Of a DNA stretch of 64,000 bases, positions 5,132 through 63,669 are shown piece after piece. The stretch's first letter is position 1. The number at the start of each line of letters is the position of its first letter. The DNA is taken from the sequence record MG383452; one strand, 5' to 3'. The stretch is from Escherichia phage FEC14. The position numbers and the translations under genes are program-made. The notes beneath the pieces were generated by a model. The model was not told the DNA's origin and did not search any database. It saw only the letters and a program-made list of their open reading frames with translations.

Positions 5132-5524
5132 ATGGCTATCGTTGACGAAAGCAATTTGATGGAGTACGCTCTAAGACATTATATCACCCCTGGTGTCTCA
5201 AGAGATGATTTGATGGTAGACATTCAGCGAATTTCGCTAATTAATCAATCATTGAAAAGATTTGTGCCAGGGAAAAGTCCTCGCGTACTTATCAATCAAT
5301 TGATTATCCTTTTCAATACCTTTGAAACCGAAGCCGTGTGTCGAATGTTGGTGTTGAAAACGGATAAGAACCAACATCCTCGTCTTAAAGCAGCGCTGTT
5401 GACGTTAGGTGTTTGGCGAGATGATTTATGTTCCGGTTCATACGAACCAGATAACGAGCTGATGATGGCTCTGAACAACGATTTGGATGAGTGGAGGAAA
5501 CCATGCCAACAATCACAGTATTAG
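5132..5524 (+). CDS. hypothetical protein
   Basis: 130-aa ORF, same-strand gene packing. Confidence 0.5.
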   Translation: MAIVDESNLMEYALRHYITPGVSRDDLMVDIQRISLINQSLKRFVPGKSPRVLINQLIILFNTFETEAVCRMLVLKTDKNQHPRLKAALLTLGVWRDDLCSGSYEPDNELMMALNNDLDEWRKPCQQSQY

Positions 5525-6312
5525 TCGCGCCGGAAGTTGTCCGCAACAAACCGGAAACCGAACGCAATCATGTCGTGACGGGTGTTGCAAAGGGTTGGCA
5601 AAAGACCAGCCTCAACCAAGATCCTGATGAGATCCTGACCGAATGTAAAGGTCTTGACGCTCTGCTCACCAAGAGCAATTTACAAGCGGACGGTGTCACC
5701 AAAGTGGATCCCACCAAGCCTATCGGCTTTCAAGTATCTTATGAAATCCACGATCCGAATGCCATTTTAACCACCGGACTTGTGATTACTCCAGCTACAG
5801 CCAGCGGAGAGATCGGACAATTTGTTGAATTGCTAGCGACGGTATCCCCTGCCAATGCCACATATCAAGGCGTTAATTGGTATTCTGGTGATATTACGAA
5901 AGCTGTACATGTCGGTGGTGGTAAATTCAAATTGCTGGCTTCAGGAACTGTAACGGTTTATGGTGTCACGGTTGAAGGGAATCACACAGATTCTACGGTT
6001 ATTACAGTTGCAGGCGCTCTGTCGCTGTCGACTGATTTACCTGCCACCAAAGACGTAACTTCTGGACAAGACGGAACCTTTAGTGTTGTTGCTGCGGGCG
6101 GTACAACTCCATACACTTATGTGTGGCATTTCTCTGATACTCCTGGGGGTGCGGGGTCAGTTATCGATGCTGGCACTAATGCCACCGCCGCCACTGCTAA
6201 CCTGGTTATCACAGCAGTTGAAGCCGCAAATGAAGGCGAATATTGGTGTGTGGTTTCTGATGCAGATGGCCATTCTGTCACGTCTACTCGTTGTGAAATG
6301 GCTGTGGTGTAA
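5503..6312 (+). CDS. Ig-like domain protein (BIG2-like plus Ig-like domain), possible virion decoration protein
   Basis: GGAGG SD before MPTITVL. Beta-rich segments 'GVNWYSGDITKA...TVTVYGVTVEG' and 'GEYWCVVSDADGHSVTSTRCEMAVV' are typical of Ig-like folds. Confidence 0.55.
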   Translation: MPTITVLVAPEVVRNKPETERNHVVTGVAKGWQKTSLNQDPDEILTECKGLDALLTKSNLQADGVTKVDPTKPIGFQVSYEIHDPNAILTTGLVITPATASGEIGQFVELLATVSPANATYQGVNWYSGDITKAVHVGGGKFKLLASGTVTVYGVTVEGNHTDSTVITVAGALSLSTDLPATKDVTSGQDGTFSVVAAGGTTPYTYVWHFSDTPGGAGSVIDAGTNATAATANLVITAVEAANEGEYWCVVSDADGHSVTSTRCEMAVV

Positions 6313-6315
6313 TTT

Positions 6316-6537
6316 ATGAAGAGCTTCCAGGATTTCCTTGAAGACTCTTCTGCTCCGGCAACCACGACCGCCGATGTGGGGAAACCCGAAGGCGGTATGG
6401 TCAAGGAGCCTGTCAAAAAACCAAAAGATCTTGAAGAAGAGTCTGATTTTAAAAAGATCTTTGGCAACATTTTCAAAGATTTGGATTTATCCAAGGCGCG
6501 AAAATGGAATTTCAGGACAGGCCAATACGACGATTAA
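6316..6537 (+). CDS. small protein with capsid-targeting-sequence-like N-terminus (candidate internal head / prohead core protein)
   Basis: N-terminus 'MKSFQDFLED' resembles the T4 internal-protein CTS 'MKTYQEFIAE'; lysine/glutamate-rich 73-aa product. Confidence 0.45.
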   Translation: MKSFQDFLEDSSAPATTTADVGKPEGGMVKEPVKKPKDLEEESDFKKIFGNIFKDLDLSKARKWNFRTGQYDD

Positions 6538-18303: not shown

Positions 18304-18707
18304 AACGTTATCGCCTGAAGTTTGAGTTAACTCGAAGGGAAGACAACGAACTCATATATGGGGAAATTTTCATATATGATCCTTATGATACGGAATACAC
18401 TGAATGGCTGAAGATAATATTGGCTGGTGAAGTCGATAAAGTATACCGTGCCATTGAAAAGGACGCCAAAGGAGTATTAAGTTTTGGTCATCTTCGAGTC
18501 GCGGCCATGATTGGTTCAGCTTTAGAAATAGTGTCTGAAGCGATAGCCATAGATCTACCAGGGGAACATATCTTCATCCGTGAATCTAAAGTTGATATGG
18601 CAACGAATTATGTGATGAAATTGACCTTGGCAGAAAATATGGAAAATAACAAACCAAGCATTTTCCGCCGTTTCATGAACAAATTAAAGGGTGTTAAAAA
18701 TGATTAA
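18300..18707 (+). CDS. hypothetical protein
   Basis: 135-aa ORF with 4-nt overlaps on both sides. Confidence 0.5.
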   Translation: MKRYRLKFELTRREDNELIYGEIFIYDPYDTEYTEWLKIILAGEVDKVYRAIEKDAKGVLSFGHLRVAAMIGSALEIVSEAIAIDLPGEHIFIRESKVDMATNYVMKLTLAENMENNKPSIFRRFMNKLKGVKND

Positions 18708-59724: not shown

Positions 59725-60078
59725 TTAGGACAATTGCTTCAGTTTGTAAATCGTTTGATAGCACAAAGTTTTGATTTCGTCAAGCGTGTTTTGTAAATGG
59801 CTATCACACTGATTGTAGATCCCATTAACGTCGATGACCACGCTGTTGATATACGATATCGGTTCAGGATTGTATAATTTGATGTTCTCGAATCCTGGAA
59901 TGTATATACCACCCGCACCAATATACGCTTCCGTAAAGGTGTCTAGCAAGTCCTCCAGTTCCCCGTAGAACTCCCCGAGTGCCTTGTGCTTGGCGTAGGA
60001 CGTTGTAACGAAGTGCAGGGCATGAGAGTGGGCTATAGCAAGCAGTCCACGGTTGATGAAAATACTCGCGTTAACCAT
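59725..60078 (-). CDS. hypothetical protein
   Basis: 117-aa ORF. Confidence 0.45.
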   Translation of the reverse strand: MVNASIFINRGLLAIAHSHALHFVTTSYAKHKALGEFYGELEDLLDTFTEAYIGAGGIYIPGFENIKLYNPEPISYINSVVIDVNGIYNQCDSHLQNTLDEIKTLCYQTIYKLKQLS

Positions 60079-60167
60079 GATTTGTTTCCTGTATTGTGAA
60101 CCATCTAGTATTTAGTGTTAATGGGTTCATGAGGTACTATATAGAATAATATAACTGGAGAAAGAAA

Positions 60168-60773
60168 ATGAAAACTTTTCAAGACTTTTTGACCGAAGCC
60201 GCGCCGCCGATGTCTGTTCATATCAAGGCAGACAAGATCGGCAAATCCACCGAAGACAATATCGGTACTTTCTTGCGAGTTAGTGTTAGTGGCGACAAAG
60301 CCACCTTTGAAACCCCTGATGGTCGTAAGATAATCCTGACGGGTGCCAGAGACATCATTTCCGCATCTGGTCTGAAAGATGGACAGTTTGCCAGTGCCCA
60401 GATGATTGACAAGGTTGATACTGACACCGCTGTCAAGTACAACAAATCAGGCAAATATATTGACTTGTTGGATGTCAAATCAGGTATGGGCAATTCCTTT
60501 ATCTCCATTGACGGCAACAAGCAATGGAAAGAAATGACTGAAGGTGGTTGGTATGCGTATAAAGGCGGTCGCCCCGGCTTGGCTCGTTATAAGATCGCCA
60601 TGGTTATGGGACCTCATGCGGGTATGCCATCTCCTGGGGAAGATATTGAATACGAGTTACCGAATGGCGGCAAAGAACGCGGAACCGTCATGAAACTGAA
60701 TGGTGCATCCAAGCTGATGGACGTCAAAAACGAAAAAGGTAAGAAAGTACAAGTCAGTATGTATGTGAAATAA
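60168..60773 (+). CDS. protein with capsid-targeting-sequence-like N-terminus (candidate internal head protein)
   Basis: N-terminus 'MKTFQDFLTEA' closely resembles the T4 CTS 'MKTYQEFIAEA'; 201 aa. Confidence 0.55.
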   Translation: MKTFQDFLTEAAPPMSVHIKADKIGKSTEDNIGTFLRVSVSGDKATFETPDGRKIILTGARDIISASGLKDGQFASAQMIDKVDTDTAVKYNKSGKYIDLLDVKSGMGNSFISIDGNKQWKEMTEGGWYAYKGGRPGLARYKIAMVMGPHAGMPSPGEDIEYELPNGGKERGTVMKLNGASKLMDVKNEKGKKVQVSMYVK

Positions 60774-60775
60774 CA

Positions 60776-60798
60776 AAACCCCGCGAAAGCGGGGTTTC
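60776..60798. terminator. bidirectional rho-independent terminator
   Basis: 'aaaaccccgcgaaagcggggttt' followed by 'cttttat', between convergent genes. Confidence 0.6.
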
Positions 60799-60800
60799 TT

Positions 60801-61040
60801 TTATGGCTTGACCAGAGTCATCTTGACGGTTTCACCCGTGTCGGTGTCTGTCAGGGTCATGACGTCTTGTGCGTTCACAGACTTCACTTTCCCCTGCCGC
60901 TTGTCGCCGTTGCGGTTGTAGTAGTCGATCAGTTCGCCTTTGGTTGGGCGGCCAACATCGGTGATGTCATACTGACCGCGCTTCCCCAGCGCCCGATGGT
61001 CTGTTGCTTCCTTCAGCAGGAAGTCCTGGAACCCTTTCAT
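60801..61040 (-). CDS. small protein with capsid-targeting-sequence-like N-terminus
   Basis: N-terminus 'MKGFQDFLLKEA'; 79 aa. Confidence 0.5.
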   Translation of the reverse strand: MKGFQDFLLKEATDHRALGKRGQYDITDVGRPTKGELIDYYNRNGDKRQGKVKSVNAQDVMTLTDTDTGETVKMTLVKP

Positions 61041-61048
61041 ACATCCCC

Positions 61049-61618
61049 CTAGACAGGCTTAACGCCGAGGAACTTGGCGATATCAGCAGCCAGGTTTTTA
61101 CCCTTGCTGATGTCCTGCTCTTTGCCGTTGCAGGTGACGATCACATATGGGTCGTCTTCGCCGCCGAAGTTCACGGTGATCGCCTTGCCGATGCCTGGGA
61201 TACCAGAGTATTCGAACTCAGTGCGACCACTTTTGCGGGACTTGCCAACACCCAGTGCTTTACCGATCATCTTGTCCATGTTCGCCAGTTCCTGAGCATA
61301 GGCTTCGGTCACCTGGCCTTTGTCAGCAGACTTGCCAAAGAAGAATTCGAAACCGTCATGGACAGCAACGACTTCCTGACCTTGGGAGATACCGTGAGTC
61401 TGGTCTGGGGTTAGTTTGACTTTTGCTGTGTTACCGTCAGTGAGTTCCAGGTTGTAGACATCCGCCTGATTGTCAGGGGTGATCTGGGTGATGACAGCTC
61501 CAGAGCACCACAATGTTCCATCAGCTTGGCTTTTGATGGATATACTCTTGCCCTGGATGCCAGCATGGGTCTGAGGCTGAGCGGCTTGTTCTTTGAAATA
61601 TTGAAGGAACGGTTTCAT
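61049..61618 (-). CDS. protein with CTS-like N-terminus (candidate internal head protein)
   Basis: N-terminus 'MKPFLQYFKEQA'; 189 aa. Confidence 0.45.
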   Translation of the reverse strand: MKPFLQYFKEQAAQPQTHAGIQGKSISIKSQADGTLWCSGAVITQITPDNQADVYNLELTDGNTAKVKLTPDQTHGISQGQEVVAVHDGFEFFFGKSADKGQVTEAYAQELANMDKMIGKALGVGKSRKSGRTEFEYSGIPGIGKAITVNFGGEDDPYVIVTCNGKEQDISKGKNLAADIAKFLGVKPV

Positions 61619-61649
61619 CTTAATCTCCTCGGGGATTTCAGTTATTTAT

Positions 61650-61667
61650 AAGCCCCCGAAGGGGCTT
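61650..61667 (-). terminator. rho-independent terminator
   Basis: 'aagcccccgaaggggctt', 8 nt past the stop of the 638-aa gene. Confidence 0.55.
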
Positions 61668-61674
61668 TCGATGA

Positions 61675-63591
61675 TCAGATCTTAATCTGCATATTGCCGC
61701 CCAGGGACTGCTCGTACTCGCTGTACGCGCTTTCCCCGTTGCTTGCAGCCCATTCGTCAGACTGCTGAGCGCGAGACAGAGTCATCAGGTTTGGTTCAGT
61801 CGGGTTGTATCCCTTGGACTTAGCATCCTGGTACAGAGTCTGCAGGTACTGGTTAGCGCGATCGATTTGAGCCTTGAACTCGCGATATGCACCTTCGGTT
61901 GTGTTACGACGGAAGGTGATATCCCAGTCCACGTTCAGAGTCTGACCATCACGGCTTGCATAGATCTGCCAATCCAGGTCGCGACCTTTTGGAGCGTTGT
62001 CGCGGATGGAGCCTGCATATGTTGCCAGGTCTACACCAGTCTTTTTAGCGGTCGCTAAAACCAAGGGTGCCAAGCGATCAATAGCGGTTTGCACTATTGC
62101 GGTCAGTTTGGACGGTTTGGTGATGTCGATGTCTCGGATGACGATAGGCTGGCCGATGGTCTTCCCATTCGGTCCATATTCGGTAATTGCTTTGACAGTC
62201 AGCACAATAGGATCACTTCCTTTGGTGATACCACGGTTGATCGTCGCTGTTACAGCCCCTTTCGCGCCAAAAGAGACACTACCGGAGGCCATCGTAGAAG
62301 AAGACACACCACGAAGTTCATTTACTTTGTAGAATGCGTTCACCAGAGCACGCCAGCGGTCTGTTGTGAGTTCGGCTGCCGTGGTTTGAGCAGGAGCCAC
62401 AGCCCCAACGCCAAATTCAACATAAGCCACAATCTTGCCACCCGACTTCAGTTCCCAACCCATACCCTGACGGTCAGAAGCCGCCATGAGTTTACGATCC
62501 ACTTCCCCACGACCAACATATTCTTTGTTGAATACGGTCACCTGAGCGATAGATTGGGAGCGGGCAATCTTCGCCATTGCGCCATCTTTGACCATGATGG
62601 CCAGATCATTGGAACTCAGAGTCACGTCGTTGGCACCGACTACCTTCACAACAGAACTGAAGATGCCGTTGGATTTCGCCATGACGGAAATGTTCCAGTC
62701 AGGGTTGGCATCACTGGTCGGGAAGTTAATTTCACGCCAGTCTTTGACGCGTTGGTTGAAATTATTGAGCAGATCCGAAGGAGGAACAGGAACACCAAAT
62801 TCACGACAAATATCTTCTACGGTCGGTTCTACCACCTGCTTTCTACCGTTCTGACCAACGAGGACATCGGCCTCACTCAGGCTTGGGGTAATGTCCAAGT
62901 CAAATGTGCCACGCTGATAATAGTTGATGCGAGGAGGCTGACCGATCTTACCACGCCATGACCAGGTTGCGGGATTGTTGGTAGTAGCGCCAACATTAGT
63001 GTCTTGAGTATCGTTCTGAACCGGAACGTCGCCGACCTTGTCTGGATCATCCCATGTGACACCTTTCATTTTCGGACCATCGAATACCTGAGCAGGATCC
63101 TTACCTTTACGCACAACCCATACGAATGCACGATCAGGGATAGGGGTATACGTCAGGTCCATGACATTGAGCTTCTGCTTCAGGCCGGACTGACGGATGA
63201 TCTTCGGCAGGAGGGTAACACCACGTTCCAATGCTTTCTTGGAGAAGTTAATTGCAAAGCCGTCAATGGTTTTCCCCAAAGGCGTCGCCATGAATTGCTT
63301 TGTTGCTTCGATCATGGATGCGATGACACGCATTGGGTTTTTGAAACGACCGATTGCGTCTGGATAGGTCGAACCACGTTTCTGGCCTATGAAGACCTGA
63401 CGAACGTTCTTGCCCAGCCCCTGCGGGGTATAAAATTGGATGCGGAATTCTTTTTCGTCTTCATCAACAAATGTGAAGAAAATGTCACCAGCGTTCTTCT
63501 TACCGAATGTCAATTCATACGGGGATGAGTTAAACGCTTCGTCTAATTGTTTAGACTCTTCAAGAAAGTTCAAGAAAGATGGGATGGCCAT
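61675..63591 (-). CDS. large protein with CTS-like N-terminus (candidate packaged protein, Alt-like size)
   Basis: 638 aa; N-terminus 'MAIPSFLNFLEES' has the hydrophobic-x-Glu pattern of gp21-cleaved CTS. No catalytic motif identified. Confidence 0.45.
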   Translation of the reverse strand: MAIPSFLNFLEESKQLDEAFNSSPYELTFGKKNAGDIFFTFVDEDEKEFRIQFYTPQGLGKNVRQVFIGQKRGSTYPDAIGRFKNPMRVIASMIEATKQFMATPLGKTIDGFAINFSKKALERGVTLLPKIIRQSGLKQKLNVMDLTYTPIPDRAFVWVVRKGKDPAQVFDGPKMKGVTWDDPDKVGDVPVQNDTQDTNVGATTNNPATWSWRGKIGQPPRINYYQRGTFDLDITPSLSEADVLVGQNGRKQVVEPTVEDICREFGVPVPPSDLLNNFNQRVKDWREINFPTSDANPDWNISVMAKSNGIFSSVVKVVGANDVTLSSNDLAIMVKDGAMAKIARSQSIAQVTVFNKEYVGRGEVDRKLMAASDRQGMGWELKSGGKIVAYVEFGVGAVAPAQTTAAELTTDRWRALVNAFYKVNELRGVSSSTMASGSVSFGAKGAVTATINRGITKGSDPIVLTVKAITEYGPNGKTIGQPIVIRDIDITKPSKLTAIVQTAIDRLAPLVLATAKKTGVDLATYAGSIRDNAPKGRDLDWQIYASRDGQTLNVDWDITFRRNTTEGAYREFKAQIDRANQYLQTLYQDAKSKGYNPTEPNLMTLSRAQQSDEWAASNGESAYSEYEQSLGGNMQIKI

Positions 63592-63669
63592 TGTAATTCT
63601 CCTGATTATAAAATCGGTGCGGTTTCCCTTAATTAGCGAAAAGAAAGGGATGCTAACACCCCTTTATTC

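Follow-up and report, generated by a model that had tools for sequence, protein, structure and literature searches.

The window analysed here, a 64,000-nt stretch of the DNA of Escherichia phage FEC14 (Kuttervirus, Ackermannviridae; Vi1-like), shared approximately 99% identity with genomes of Kuttervirus across 20 kb. Five genes in it had been listed in an earlier note for the similar N-termini of their products, and an ORF check found all five, with the N-termini quoted there, at the following positions:

60168-60773, plus strand: p201, 201 aa, starting MKTFQDFLTEA
60801-61040, minus strand: p79, 79 aa, starting MKGFQDFLLKEA
61049-61618, minus strand: p189, 189 aa, starting MKPFLQYFKEQA
61675-63591, minus strand: p638, 638 aa, starting MAIPSFLNFLEES
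6316-6537, plus strand: p73, 73 aa, starting MKSFQDFLED

The first four are adjacent, as had been stated, but do not form a single operon, p201 being located on the plus strand and convergent with p79. Three transcription signals were found at the cluster:

61643-61650, minus strand: late promoter box of the T4 type, TATAAATA, about 25 nt ahead of the start of p189
60775-60798, both strands: bidirectional intrinsic terminator common to the convergent genes p201 and p79
63644-63665, minus strand: terminator-like hairpin between p638 and the upstream gene of 91 aa

The window has just two further TATAAATA boxes (41907 and 46704), both of which precede baseplate genes, and a putative late promoter is annotated at the equivalent place in LIMEstone1. 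The box probably drives p189 and p79, while p638 appears to be a transcription unit of its own, because the hairpin sets it apart.

The tags of the five proteins share the consensus M-K-x-F-x-[D/E]-[F/Y]-[L/F]-x-E, shifted by two residues in p638. The propeptide pattern of the T4 internal proteins (IP), MKT[Y/F]x[E/D]F[I/L]xE, is fitted directly by p201, p79, p189 and p73, and by p638 with the same shift. When 92 greedy gene calls in the window were scored for F-x-x-[FY]-[LIFM]-x(0-3)-E, its first F having to lie at residue 4-6, the motif was found at these five N-termini and at no other. Internally it occurred only 5 times at 18,524 positions, so that 0.07 would be expected at N-termini; the resulting Poisson P of about 2e-8 is generous, since the motif was defined after the data had been seen. 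As a control, the same kind of pattern was applied to 50 kb of T4, where it marked, at annotated gene starts, ipI, ipII and ipIII only. Codons differ at synonymous sites among the five tags, indicating that the likeness has been kept at the protein level and does not stem from a recent DNA copy.

Orthologues in five genera of Ackermannviridae retain the tag, while the remainder of the proteins diverges. Invariant positions were M1, K2, F4, L8, E10 and A11 in the p201 family, with F or Y at position 7, and M1, F4 and E10 in the p189 family, with an aromatic residue at position 7. The tag is also present in distant T4-like metagenome contigs, in one of which MKSFQDFLTEAK starts a gene located between portal/gp67-like genes and an S77 protease gene. 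The T4 sequence cited for comparison in the earlier note was correct: both ipII and ipIII start with MKTYQEFIAE, followed by A, and ipI, which begins MKTFKEF (PMC8442874), reads MKTFKEF...ITE/A (a slash marks the cut). Seven of the first 11 residues of p201 are identical to those of T4 ipII, and in BLASTP the likeness is limited to residues 1-11. Amber-suppressor mutagenesis of T4 IPIII assigned positions 4 and 7 to targeting and positions 8 and 10 to processing (PMC9026906); the residues thus mapped are kept in the tag families as F4, F/Y7, L/F8 and E10 (E11 in p79). Taken from sequence comparison, these data support reading the tag as the Ackermannviridae counterpart of the T4 capsid targeting sequence.

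The tags and the positions relevant to processing were as follows:

60168-60197, plus strand: p201 tag, aa 1-10, MKTFQDFLTE/A
61008-61040, minus strand: p79 tag, aa 1-11, MKGFQDFLLKE/A
61589-61618, minus strand: p189 tag, aa 1-10, MKPFLQYFKE/Q
61304-61306, minus strand: invariant Glu105 of p189 (GQVTE/A), in the linker joining the two domains, where the module-swap breakpoint also falls
63538-63591, minus strand: p638 propeptide, aa 1-18, with the IP-like motif F6..F9-L-E, then LDE18/A19
6316-6345, plus strand: p73 tag, aa 1-9/10, MKSFQDFLE-D

Sites of the gp21 type are predicted in p201 (FLTE10/A), p79 (LLKE11/A), p189 (YFKE10/Q) and p638 (LDE18/A). The canonical [L/I]-x-E followed by a small residue is present in p201 (LTE/A), p79 (LKE/A) and p638 (LDE/A), and the p201 site, FLTE/A, is that of gp23 maturation in T4, SFLTE65/AEIGG (PMC9026906). 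Position P3 is off-canonical in p189 (F, L, M or Y; x-E/Q), which possibly has a second predicted site at VTE105/A, and in p73 (F; F-L-E/D). In p638, where a cut at LEE had been proposed, the likely site is instead after Glu18 (LDE/AFNS). Cleavage of p73 is uncertain, because its E9 is followed by D10 and Asp at position 10 of T4 IPIII blocked processing, though not targeting (PMC9026906). A prohead protease (Vi01_154c, Peptidase_S77, 97 bits) and a gp22-type scaffold (Vi01_153c, T4_CASP, 153 bits) are encoded beyond the region corresponding to the window and were verified only in Vi01; PhiSH19 is likewise annotated with both (PMC3220722).

The largest of the five proteins, p638, is recorded for Escherichia phage FEC14 as a hypothetical protein (100% identity). 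It had no Pfam domain, and its AF2 model (pLDDT 68) gave no significant fold match. Behind the propeptide, the following parts could be distinguished:

63022-63537, minus strand: Alt-N-like domain, aa 19 to about 190, from profile comparison
about aa 206-512, minus strand: mosaic middle with beta-rich modules, from the modular map
61678-62055, minus strand: conserved C-terminal domain, aa 513-638, from the modular map

In hhalign, the profiles of the p638 and T4 Alt N-terminal domains matched over 168 columns with a probability of 97.0% (E 9.7e-11; negative control 0.13%). The alignment begins at residue 1, and the [L/I]-x-E cleavage sites line up. Reciprocal HMMER searches ranked the true pairs above every decoy in both directions, while one Alt sequence alone reached only 5% against the profile. 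Judged by these profiles, the N-terminal domain of p638 is homologous to that of T4 Alt, a relationship that is new here. F6, E18, A19, F20 and N21 were invariant in the p638 family alignment. Among 85 diverse relatives of the N-domain, with propeptides of about 4 to 45 aa, P1 was E in 83, P1' was A or S in 81 and P3 was L, I, F, V or M in 83. The 6-aa propeptide of T4 Alt is annotated as cleaved off (record X15811). T4 Alt carries Pfam ADPrib_exo_Tox at residues 374-614 (124 bits); no ADP-ribosyltransferase domain was found in p638 or in 45 close relatives, and of 71 distant N-domain relatives only 4 carried ADPrib_exo_Tox. Since the Alt-type N-domain is present and ADPrib_exo_Tox is absent, p638 can be placed in the Alt N-domain superfamily, but not with the Alt enzyme.

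The view that the five proteins are unrelated past the N-terminus held only in part. The C-terminal approximately 50 aa of p201 form a module common to p79 (BLASTP, 29% identity over 48 aa; hhalign, E 2.7e-4, probability 42%). The p79 protein consists of the tag and this single small module, which is also placed after other modules in MK-13 gp181, P0152, P0153 and P0154, and the modules of p79 and of p189, a tagged two-domain protein, are fused together in relatives. Tag-bearing orthologues of p79 (PHROG 5709, a family without assigned function) were found in Limestonevirus, Kuttervirus and Miltonvirus, and p189 in nearly all Ackermannviridae (275 records). By contrast, p201 is a rare accessory gene with only five homologue clusters in a database of 5.8 billion proteins; it had no match in Pfam, PHROG, NCBIfam or PDB sequences and no orthologue in LIMEstone1 or Vi01, the latter also lacking p79. 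The mature parts of the tagged proteins showed no homology to T4 IPI, IPII or IPIII, and searches of Pfam, NCBIfam and PHROG gave no internal-protein match among them; such homology is not a strict criterion, because T4's own three internal proteins are unrelated past the tag. Gene content of the locus differs among phages that are otherwise 99% identical, and no phage record covering at least 80% of 59.7-63.7 kb was found, versus 160 records for 30-50 kb. On this sequence evidence the locus is a recombination-prone cassette, in which cargo modules appear to be shuffled behind tags or behind each other.

The remaining gene, p73, begins 3 nt past the end of a head-decoration gene and is followed by a terminator-like hairpin:

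5503-6312: Hoc-like head-decoration gene

The product of this neighbour is annotated in Vi01 as a structural protein with an Ig domain, and the equivalent LIMEstone1 ORF as Hoc. p73 belongs to PHROG 4805 and is kept in Kuttervirus and Limestonevirus. A sixth tagged protein, Vi01_183 (MKTFLEFYRES), is encoded at 142 kb of the Vi01 genome and matched Pfam ART-PolyVal (43 bits); its LIMEstone1 orthologue is annotated as 'unknown structural protein', i.e. a confirmed virion protein.

Published mass spectrometry of purified LIMEstone1 virions detected ORF080, the p189 orthologue, and both ORF081 and ORF082, the halves of a split p638 orthologue, with 23 peptides covering 55% of ORF081; the whole particle was analysed, which gives no position of proteins within it. 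ORF079, 100% identical to p79, and the p73 orthologue are absent from the list of 39 virion proteins, and none of the phages whose published virion proteomes were consulted has an orthologue of p201. Vi01_093c and Vi01_094c carry the annotation 'phage associated'.

The capsid-targeting reading offered in the earlier note is supported by the conservation of the tag, the protease and scaffold genes of relatives, the LIMEstone1 virion data, the homology to Alt and the sixth tagged protein of Vi01. We consider it likely that the products of the five genes are internal head proteins of Kuttervirus FEC14, loaded by way of a T4-type tag. Given this tag and the front domain that p638 shares with Alt, the tagged proteins are very probably packaged in the head and, by analogy with T4, probably injected. 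For p201, p79 and p73 packaging is inferred, and cleavage, ejection and any effector activity of the set would follow the T4 precedent. Judging from promoter motifs and gene position, the genes would be expressed late. During prohead assembly the tag would then dock each protein on a scaffolding core of the gp22 type and, once the shell is closed, the S77 (gp21-type) prohead protease would cut after Glu, as the site sequences and the Alt homology suggest. The mature proteins would remain in the DNA-filled head, consistent with detection of the p189 and p638 orthologues in virions of relatives, and, as proposed from T4 IPI and Alt, might leave the particle together with the DNA during infection and then affect the host. 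In this scheme p638 is a member of the Alt N-terminal-domain superfamily with other C-terminal modules in place of the ADP-ribosyltransferase. The mechanism itself is known from T4; the new element is its probable occurrence in the Vi1-like phage family, for which no earlier description of T4-style tag loading was found in the literature.

We regard it as unlikely that the set serves in the prohead core or in assembly, in the manner of T4 gp67 and gp68: drawn into the core by the tag, the proteins would help to build or size the head, would then be degraded or persist as inert remnants, and would not be injected effectors. The near-ubiquity of p189 resembles a structural need more than an arms-race gene, but the family can do without p201 and p79, as seen from the few clusters of p201 and the lack of both in Vi01, and the locus is hypervariable. 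The p189 and p638 orthologues, among them the well-covered ORF081, also persist in mature virions, and p638 is homologous to Alt, an ejected protein. Consistent with a core function are the acidity of p189 and p73, an internal F-A-D-F-L near the N-terminus of Vi01_155c (head scaffolding, PHROG 3503), and the tagged genes of a distant contig (L100/L053), which occupy the place of T4 genes 67/68 in the portal-protease interval.

It is very improbable that p638, and perhaps others, are external tail, neck or decoration parts, with a variable middle serving host-surface interaction and a motif unrelated to head targeting. In some records the p638 orthologue is called 'putative tail completion protein' or 'Tail fiber protein', but these names cite no experiment in their records, and none of 46 members of the p638 family had a tail or fibre domain of Pfam. 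The beta-rich, mosaic central modules would suit such a part, and virion mass spectrometry does not place the orthologue within the particle; its N-domain is, however, homologous to that of head-internal Alt and the protease site is kept in 83 of 85 relatives. Equally improbable is a view of the shared N-termini as a relic of common descent or of a common translation-initiation context without targeting role: although three of the genes are adjacent, so that duplication is possible, and modules common to p201, p79 and p189 show recombination inside the cluster, five genera retain the tag against varying synonymous sites and downstream sequence, it heads proteins that are unrelated and encoded at unlinked sites (p73 at 6.3 kb, Vi01_183 at 142 kb of the Vi01 genome), it is present in distant T4-like metagenome contigs, and the positions that it conserves are those functionally mapped in T4.

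As internal head proteins, the FEC14 set can be compared with several known systems. The ejection proteins of the giant phages phiKZ and SPN3US are likewise head-internal, cut after Glu by a related prohead protease and delivered to the host (PMC5694885), but their propeptides are mostly longer than 100 aa and not short IP-type tags. The Dar proteins of P1 are head-internal, dependent on head assembly and host-delivered, some of this ejected class being anti-restriction proteins (PMC5694885; PMC12810830); packaging of the Dar proteins depends on protein-protein hierarchies and not on a cleavable decapeptide. T4 gp67 and gp68, both small, join the core of the prohead and undergo cleavage by gp21, and their gene position is held by tagged genes in one distant T4-like contig; they lack an IP-type tag at the start and are mostly degraded, however, and the FEC14 tagged genes lie outside the head-gene module.

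With T4 Alt, p638 shares an N-terminal propeptide closing in [L/I]-x-E (MELITE/LFDED in T4 Alt and MSEQLNE/VFDSD in Alt homologues; QLDE/AFNSS in p638 and QLNE/AFDSE in its relatives). Both are large, non-essential-looking virion proteins, and the ADPrib_exo_Tox domain of Alt is also borne by distant members of the p638 N-domain family. In contrast to Alt, p638 has a mosaic middle and another conserved C-terminal domain without ADP-ribosyltransferase, and an 18-aa propeptide with IP-like F-x-x-F-L-x-E as opposed to one of 6 aa; in Ackermannviridae, an ADP-ribosyltransferase from a different Pfam family (ART-PolyVal) is encoded separately, as a small protein with a tag.

Compared with T4 IPI, IPII and IPIII, the FEC14 consensus differs at three positions (F4/D6/L8 against Y4/E6/I8 in T4), two members of the set are acidic (p189, pI 5.9; p73, pI 5.1) whereas the T4 internal proteins are basic, the cluster genes share and fuse cargo modules, and the mature parts are not homologous to the T4 ones. 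The likeness to these proteins comprises an N-terminal propeptide of 10-19 aa, M-K-T-[Y/F]-x-[E/D]-F-[I/L]-x-E, with a small residue behind it in p201, p79 and p638, which fronts otherwise unrelated, small, often basic proteins, as well as non-core genes that vary between close relatives and are scattered over more than one locus of a phage encoding a gp21-type protease and a gp22-type scaffold. It extends to gene order: T4 ipII and ipIII are located between regB/vs.1 and gene e, and the main FEC14 cluster is flanked by a RegB/Vs.1-like gene on one side and the endolysin region on the other.

Reading of the open reading frames in the window returned five genes with exactly the coordinates and N-termini claimed in the earlier note: p201, p79, p189 and p638 at 60-63.6 kb and p73 elsewhere (names are lengths in amino acids). 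Each product begins with a putative short capsid targeting sequence (CTS, or tag) of the T4 internal-protein (IP) type. The four clustered genes are adjacent, as that note had described, but p201 is a + strand gene that runs towards p79, and the other three lie on the - strand.

59725-60078, - strand: untagged 117-aa DUF5856 protein ("starvation-inducible regulator", Dps-like), adjoining the cluster
60168-60773, + strand: p201
60775-60798: bidirectional terminator between the convergent p201 and p79
60801-61040, - strand: p79
61049-61618, - strand: p189
about 25 nt upstream of p189: T4-type late-promoter box TATAAATA, with two further boxes in the window, each before baseplate genes
61675-63591, - strand: p638, 100% identical to a hypothetical protein of Escherichia phage FEC14
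6316-6537, + strand: p73

The tag motif was absent from every other protein among the 92 gene calls in the window, and its five N-terminal occurrences compare with about 0.07 expected from the internal frequency of the motif. A topoisomerase subunit that seemed to be absent near 10.4-11.8 kb was an artefact of the overlap filter behind these gene calls, and the sequence itself has no such gap. Synonymous codons differ among the five tags, which argues for selection on the peptide. The T4 start MKTYQEFIAE, with which the tags had been compared, is that of ipII and ipIII, ipI beginning MKTFKEF (PMC8442874). In a T4 control with the same kind of pattern over 50 kb, ipI, ipII and ipIII alone matched among annotated gene starts. 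Amber-suppressor mutagenesis of T4 IPIII assigned residues 4 and 7 to targeting and residues 8 and 10 to processing, and Asp10 blocked processing while targeting was kept (PMC9026906); the positions conserved in the FEC14-type tags are those mapped in IPIII. The p201 sequence FLTE/A (a slash marks a known or predicted cleavage point) is identical to the T4 gp23 maturation site SFLTE65/AEIGG, the gp23 propeptide having 65 residues (PMC9026906). No convincing sigma-70 promoter or exact late-promoter box was found upstream of p201 or p638, and p73 starts 3 nt past a Hoc-like gene. A CTAAATA late-like box was observed at 60115, upstream of the DUF5856 gene.

Between 30 and 50 kb the window showed 99.2% identity to Kuttervirus genomes (e.g. 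SFP10, S117 and CBA120), with at least 80% of this part covered in 160 records, and it is collinear with Salmonella phage Vi01 from rIIA on. Identity and collinearity together place the window phage in the Ackermannviridae (Vi1-like), distant relatives of T4. Between 59.7 and 63.7 kb, coverage of at least 80% was reached in none of the phage records, and the best match, an Agtrevirus, showed 91% identity over 79%. The tagged-gene locus is the variable part of its region, and the targeting-tag reading accounts for its being the least conserved in an otherwise 99%-conserved region. The main cluster is flanked by a RegB/Vs.1-like gene and by a primase and endolysin region; ipII and ipIII of T4 sit between regB/vs.1 and gene e, a loose positional parallel.

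Orthologous clusters were compared in six relatives, MK-13 (Agtrevirus), LIMEstone1 (Limestonevirus), CBA120 and D5lw (Kuttervirus), 0507-KN2-1 (Taipeivirus) and 2050H1 (Miltonvirus), and all six have kept the tag. Tags of the 189-aa family read MKPF[L/I][Q/E]YF[K/N]E, MKTFLEFFTE or MKKFSEFLIE, each followed by QAAQP, and the only residues invariant among 31 members were M1, F4, E10 and E105. Tags of the 79-aa family were MKGFQDFLLKEA or MKSFGDYLLKERA. Homologues of p201 formed just five clusters in a search of 5.8 billion proteins; M1, K2, F4, L8, E10 and A11 were invariant despite 60% overall identity. For 0507-KN2-1 orf7 (L009:6974-7567) and for protein P0061 of phage Gloob, the start codons in the annotation precede the conserved M-K-T-F or M-S-K-P-N-F tag by 9 and 17 codons. 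These start codons are probably mis-called, and the tag could serve for correcting gene starts in the family.

Proteins of the p638 family in the Ackermannviridae range from 546 to 1,025 aa and consist of a conserved N-domain (residues about 1-205), a mosaic middle and a conserved C-domain (residues 513-638). A phmmer search of 1.84 billion representatives with p638 residues 1-205 as the query found the N-domain in at least 91 clusters (at 50% identity), with proteins of 50-1,677 aa, all exceeding 279 aa except one fragment. The domain sits at the extreme N-terminus in almost all 91 clusters. In 85 relatives the residues preceding it form a protease site, with Glu at P1 in 83, L (57), I (16), F (6), V (3) or M (1) at P3, a variable P2, and Ala (65) or Ser (16) at P1′; the propeptide comprises about 4 to 45 residues. 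Judged by sequence, this site is the consensus of the T4 prohead protease gp21. T4 Alt starts MELITE/LFDED, 6 amino acids being cleaved off according to record X15811, and its homologues start MSEQLNE/VFDSD, resembling the N-termini of the p638 N-domain relatives.

In hhalign, a profile built from 26 diverse N-domains and one built from eight Alt N-termini aligned from residue 1 over 168 columns with their cleavage sites in register (probability 97.0%, E 9.7e-11); an unrelated control profile gave 0.13%. HMMER ranked every true pair over all 92 window proteins in either direction. A single T4 Alt sequence reached a probability of just 5% against the N-domain profile, and an alignment of close p638 relatives reached 0.25% against Alt; the homology emerged solely when the profiles on both sides were diverse. 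The profile comparison identifies p638 as an Alt relative through its N-domain. Given the aligned Alt-like site, p638 is likely cut after Glu18 (QLDE/AFNS), and the residues F6-L-N-F9-L-E read as an IP-like tag ahead of this predicted site. There is no Pfam family for the N-terminal region of Alt, and the link to p638 gives a role to Alt's N-terminal third. The Pfam domain ADPrib_exo_Tox, as in T4 Alt, was not found in a Pfam search of p638, and was present in 4 of 71 distant N-domain relatives, one of which showed 26% identity to the Alt catalytic domain (E 6e-8). Most cluster members had no Pfam domain behind the N-domain, and one gave a weak DinI-like match. These clusters, which share the domain and its conserved protease site and whose cargo is mostly unassigned, probably constitute a large, unexplored set of head-delivered proteins.

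The claim that the five proteins are unrelated beyond the N-terminus did not hold for p201 and p79, which have a related C-terminal module, nor for p189 and p79, whose modules are fused in relatives. The last ~50 residues of p201 matched the p79 module with 29% identity over 48 residues (BLASTP) and with E 2.7e-4 and a probability of 42% (hhalign). In MK-13 gp181 an extra module separates the tag from an exact copy of the p79 sequence. Divergence in the 189-aa family begins directly past the invariant GQVTE105, which is followed by the usual C-terminal domain, by a CBA120-type module, which recurs as the insert in MK-13 gp181, by the p79 module (P0153 and P0154) or by a stop codon (P0155 and 2050H1 gp128). 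In P0152 the tag is followed by the p189 C-domain, and the p79 module comes last. An AF2 model of p189 (pLDDT 76) showed a short helix at 4-10, disorder at 11-20, and two domains with a linker ending at E105. These comparisons suggest that the protease might also cut at E105 and that junctions of this kind might be where modules are exchanged. The VTE/A junctions fit the protease motif; LKTE/G in MK-13 gp181 and VKVE/G in P0152 are off motif with Lys at P3, and cleavage at junctions is therefore retained just as speculation.

The head machinery is present in relatives. Vi01 has genes for a prohead protease that matches Peptidase_S77 (97 bits) and for a scaffolding protein of the T4 type (153 bits), both genes lying outside the window, and a prohead protease and a scaffold are also annotated in PhiSH19 (PMC3220722). 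The LIMEstone1 paper reported 39 virion proteins by ESI-MS/MS and remarked that structural proteins cluster, without explanation, between ORF78 and ORF85. When the record was matched to the sequences, ORF080 in the virion list proved to be the p189 orthologue, and ORF082 and ORF081 the split p638 orthologue, ORF081 having been detected with 55% coverage and 23 peptides. ORF078, the DUF5856 orthologue, was also confirmed in virions by mass spectrometry (28% coverage). In the Vi01 record the 189-aa and 799-aa orthologues are labelled 'phage associated protein'. ORF079, which is identical to p79, and the p73 orthologue were not among the 39 virion proteins, and this counts weakly against packaging of these small proteins. 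ORF082 and ORF081 (L008:5348-6944) overlap, have 163 aa and 375 aa, and were each detected in virions. Either a 454 homopolymer error or a real frameshift could account for their split; in the second case ORF081 would enter the virion although it has no tag itself. By inference, p201, p79 and p73 would be packaged as well, the tags would be removed and the proteins ejected, and they may act against host defences. Alternatively, p189 and p73, which are acidic in contrast to the T4 internal proteins, could serve in the prohead core or in assembly and not as effectors; the finding of the p189 orthologue in LIMEstone1 virions speaks against this.

An exact-pattern scan of IMG/VR (ATG-AAR-NNN-TTY-CAR-GAY-TTY-YT) yielded 110 stretches, comprising Ackermannviridae orthologues and real tagged ORFs in distant T4-like contigs; the latter indicate that the tag is widespread in the T4 supergroup. 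In agreement with this, further proteins with CTS-like sequences are found in T2, T6 and other T4-like phages (PMC9026906). The clearest distant case was that of the metagenome loci L053 (IMGVR_UViG_3300006426_000515) and L100, where two neighbouring genes, one of 101 aa with the start MKSFQDFLTEAK and the other with the start MALKDYLAEK, have portal/gp67-like genes on one side and, on the other, a gene for an S77 protease (140 bits). In Vi01 the head scaffolding protein Vi01_155c (L006:5844-6161, PHROG 3503), which adjoins the prohead protease gene and starts MMEITEIATFADFLAS, has an F-x-D-F-L motif 9 residues in; the L100 genes at the same position begin with the tag itself. An unrelated viral contig (L025:61-329, IMGVR_UViG_3300046018_000097) contained three tandem mini-ORFs of 8 codons, MKIFQDFL-stop, 123 nt apart and with identical upstream sequences. 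Two further tag-like starts were observed in Vi01.

L006:43852-44301, outside the window: Vi01 gene 183, 149 aa, start MKTFLEFYRES, Pfam ART-PolyVal
L006:39427-39624 (Vi01 137427-137624): unannotated 65-aa ORF, start MKTFGEFLAE (MKTFGEFLAEWDG), PHROG 3684, weak DUF2188

Gene 183 matched ART-PolyVal with 43 bits (cut-off 31); it is 'phage associated' in its record, and the LIMEstone1 orthologue is an 'unknown structural protein'. By analogy it would be a tagged, virion-borne functional counterpart of T4 Alt from a different ADP-ribosyltransferase family, and it is the best hint of host-modifying enzymes among the tagged proteins. FEC14 probably carries a counterpart outside the window. The 65-aa ORF sits in a ~4-kb stretch that has no annotated CDS in the Vi01 record and may be a further tagged protein.

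Pfam, NCBIfam and PHROGs gave an informative family for none of the five tagged proteins, and PDB sequence searches with p638, p201, p189 and the N-domain profile gave no match. Orthologues of the tagged proteins are annotated as hypothetical. No description of a CTS or of internal proteins in the Ackermannviridae was found in the literature searched; the CBA120 and phiSboM-AG3 papers mention neither, and EspM4VN proteomics covered major bands only.

It is conceivable, though we would rather doubt it, that a general delivery system of the T4 supergroup, one open to recombination, is built on the IP-type tag together with the Alt-type N-domain, with cargo cut at its junctions and an effector cassette at 60-63.6 kb. 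If so, the joints between cargo modules would be sites for the prohead protease, candidates being the invariant VTE105/A of p189 and the Glu always found ahead of the p79 module, and the modules would be freed as separate proteins in the capsid and then injected. The cassette would be polymorphic, and the genes in it, the rare p201 and the mosaic p638 among them, would decide which host defence systems the phage overcomes.

The Ackermannviridae, among them Vi01, CBA120, LIMEstone and Klebsiella and Serratia relatives, are phages with hypermodified DNA in wide use for biocontrol and therapy. For these phages the tag yields a testable list of candidate injected proteins, five in the window, one of them an Alt relative, and at least one more beyond it, the ADP-ribosyltransferase of Vi01. 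Foreign proteins have already been packaged by means of the T4 tag, and the tag described here is a plausible handle for loading them into Ackermannviridae phages. Tag-directed head packaging is textbook T4 biology. The mechanism is known, and what is new is the link to the Alt N-domain and the shuffling of modules; current understanding stands, and T4 head biology is extended to a neighbouring family.
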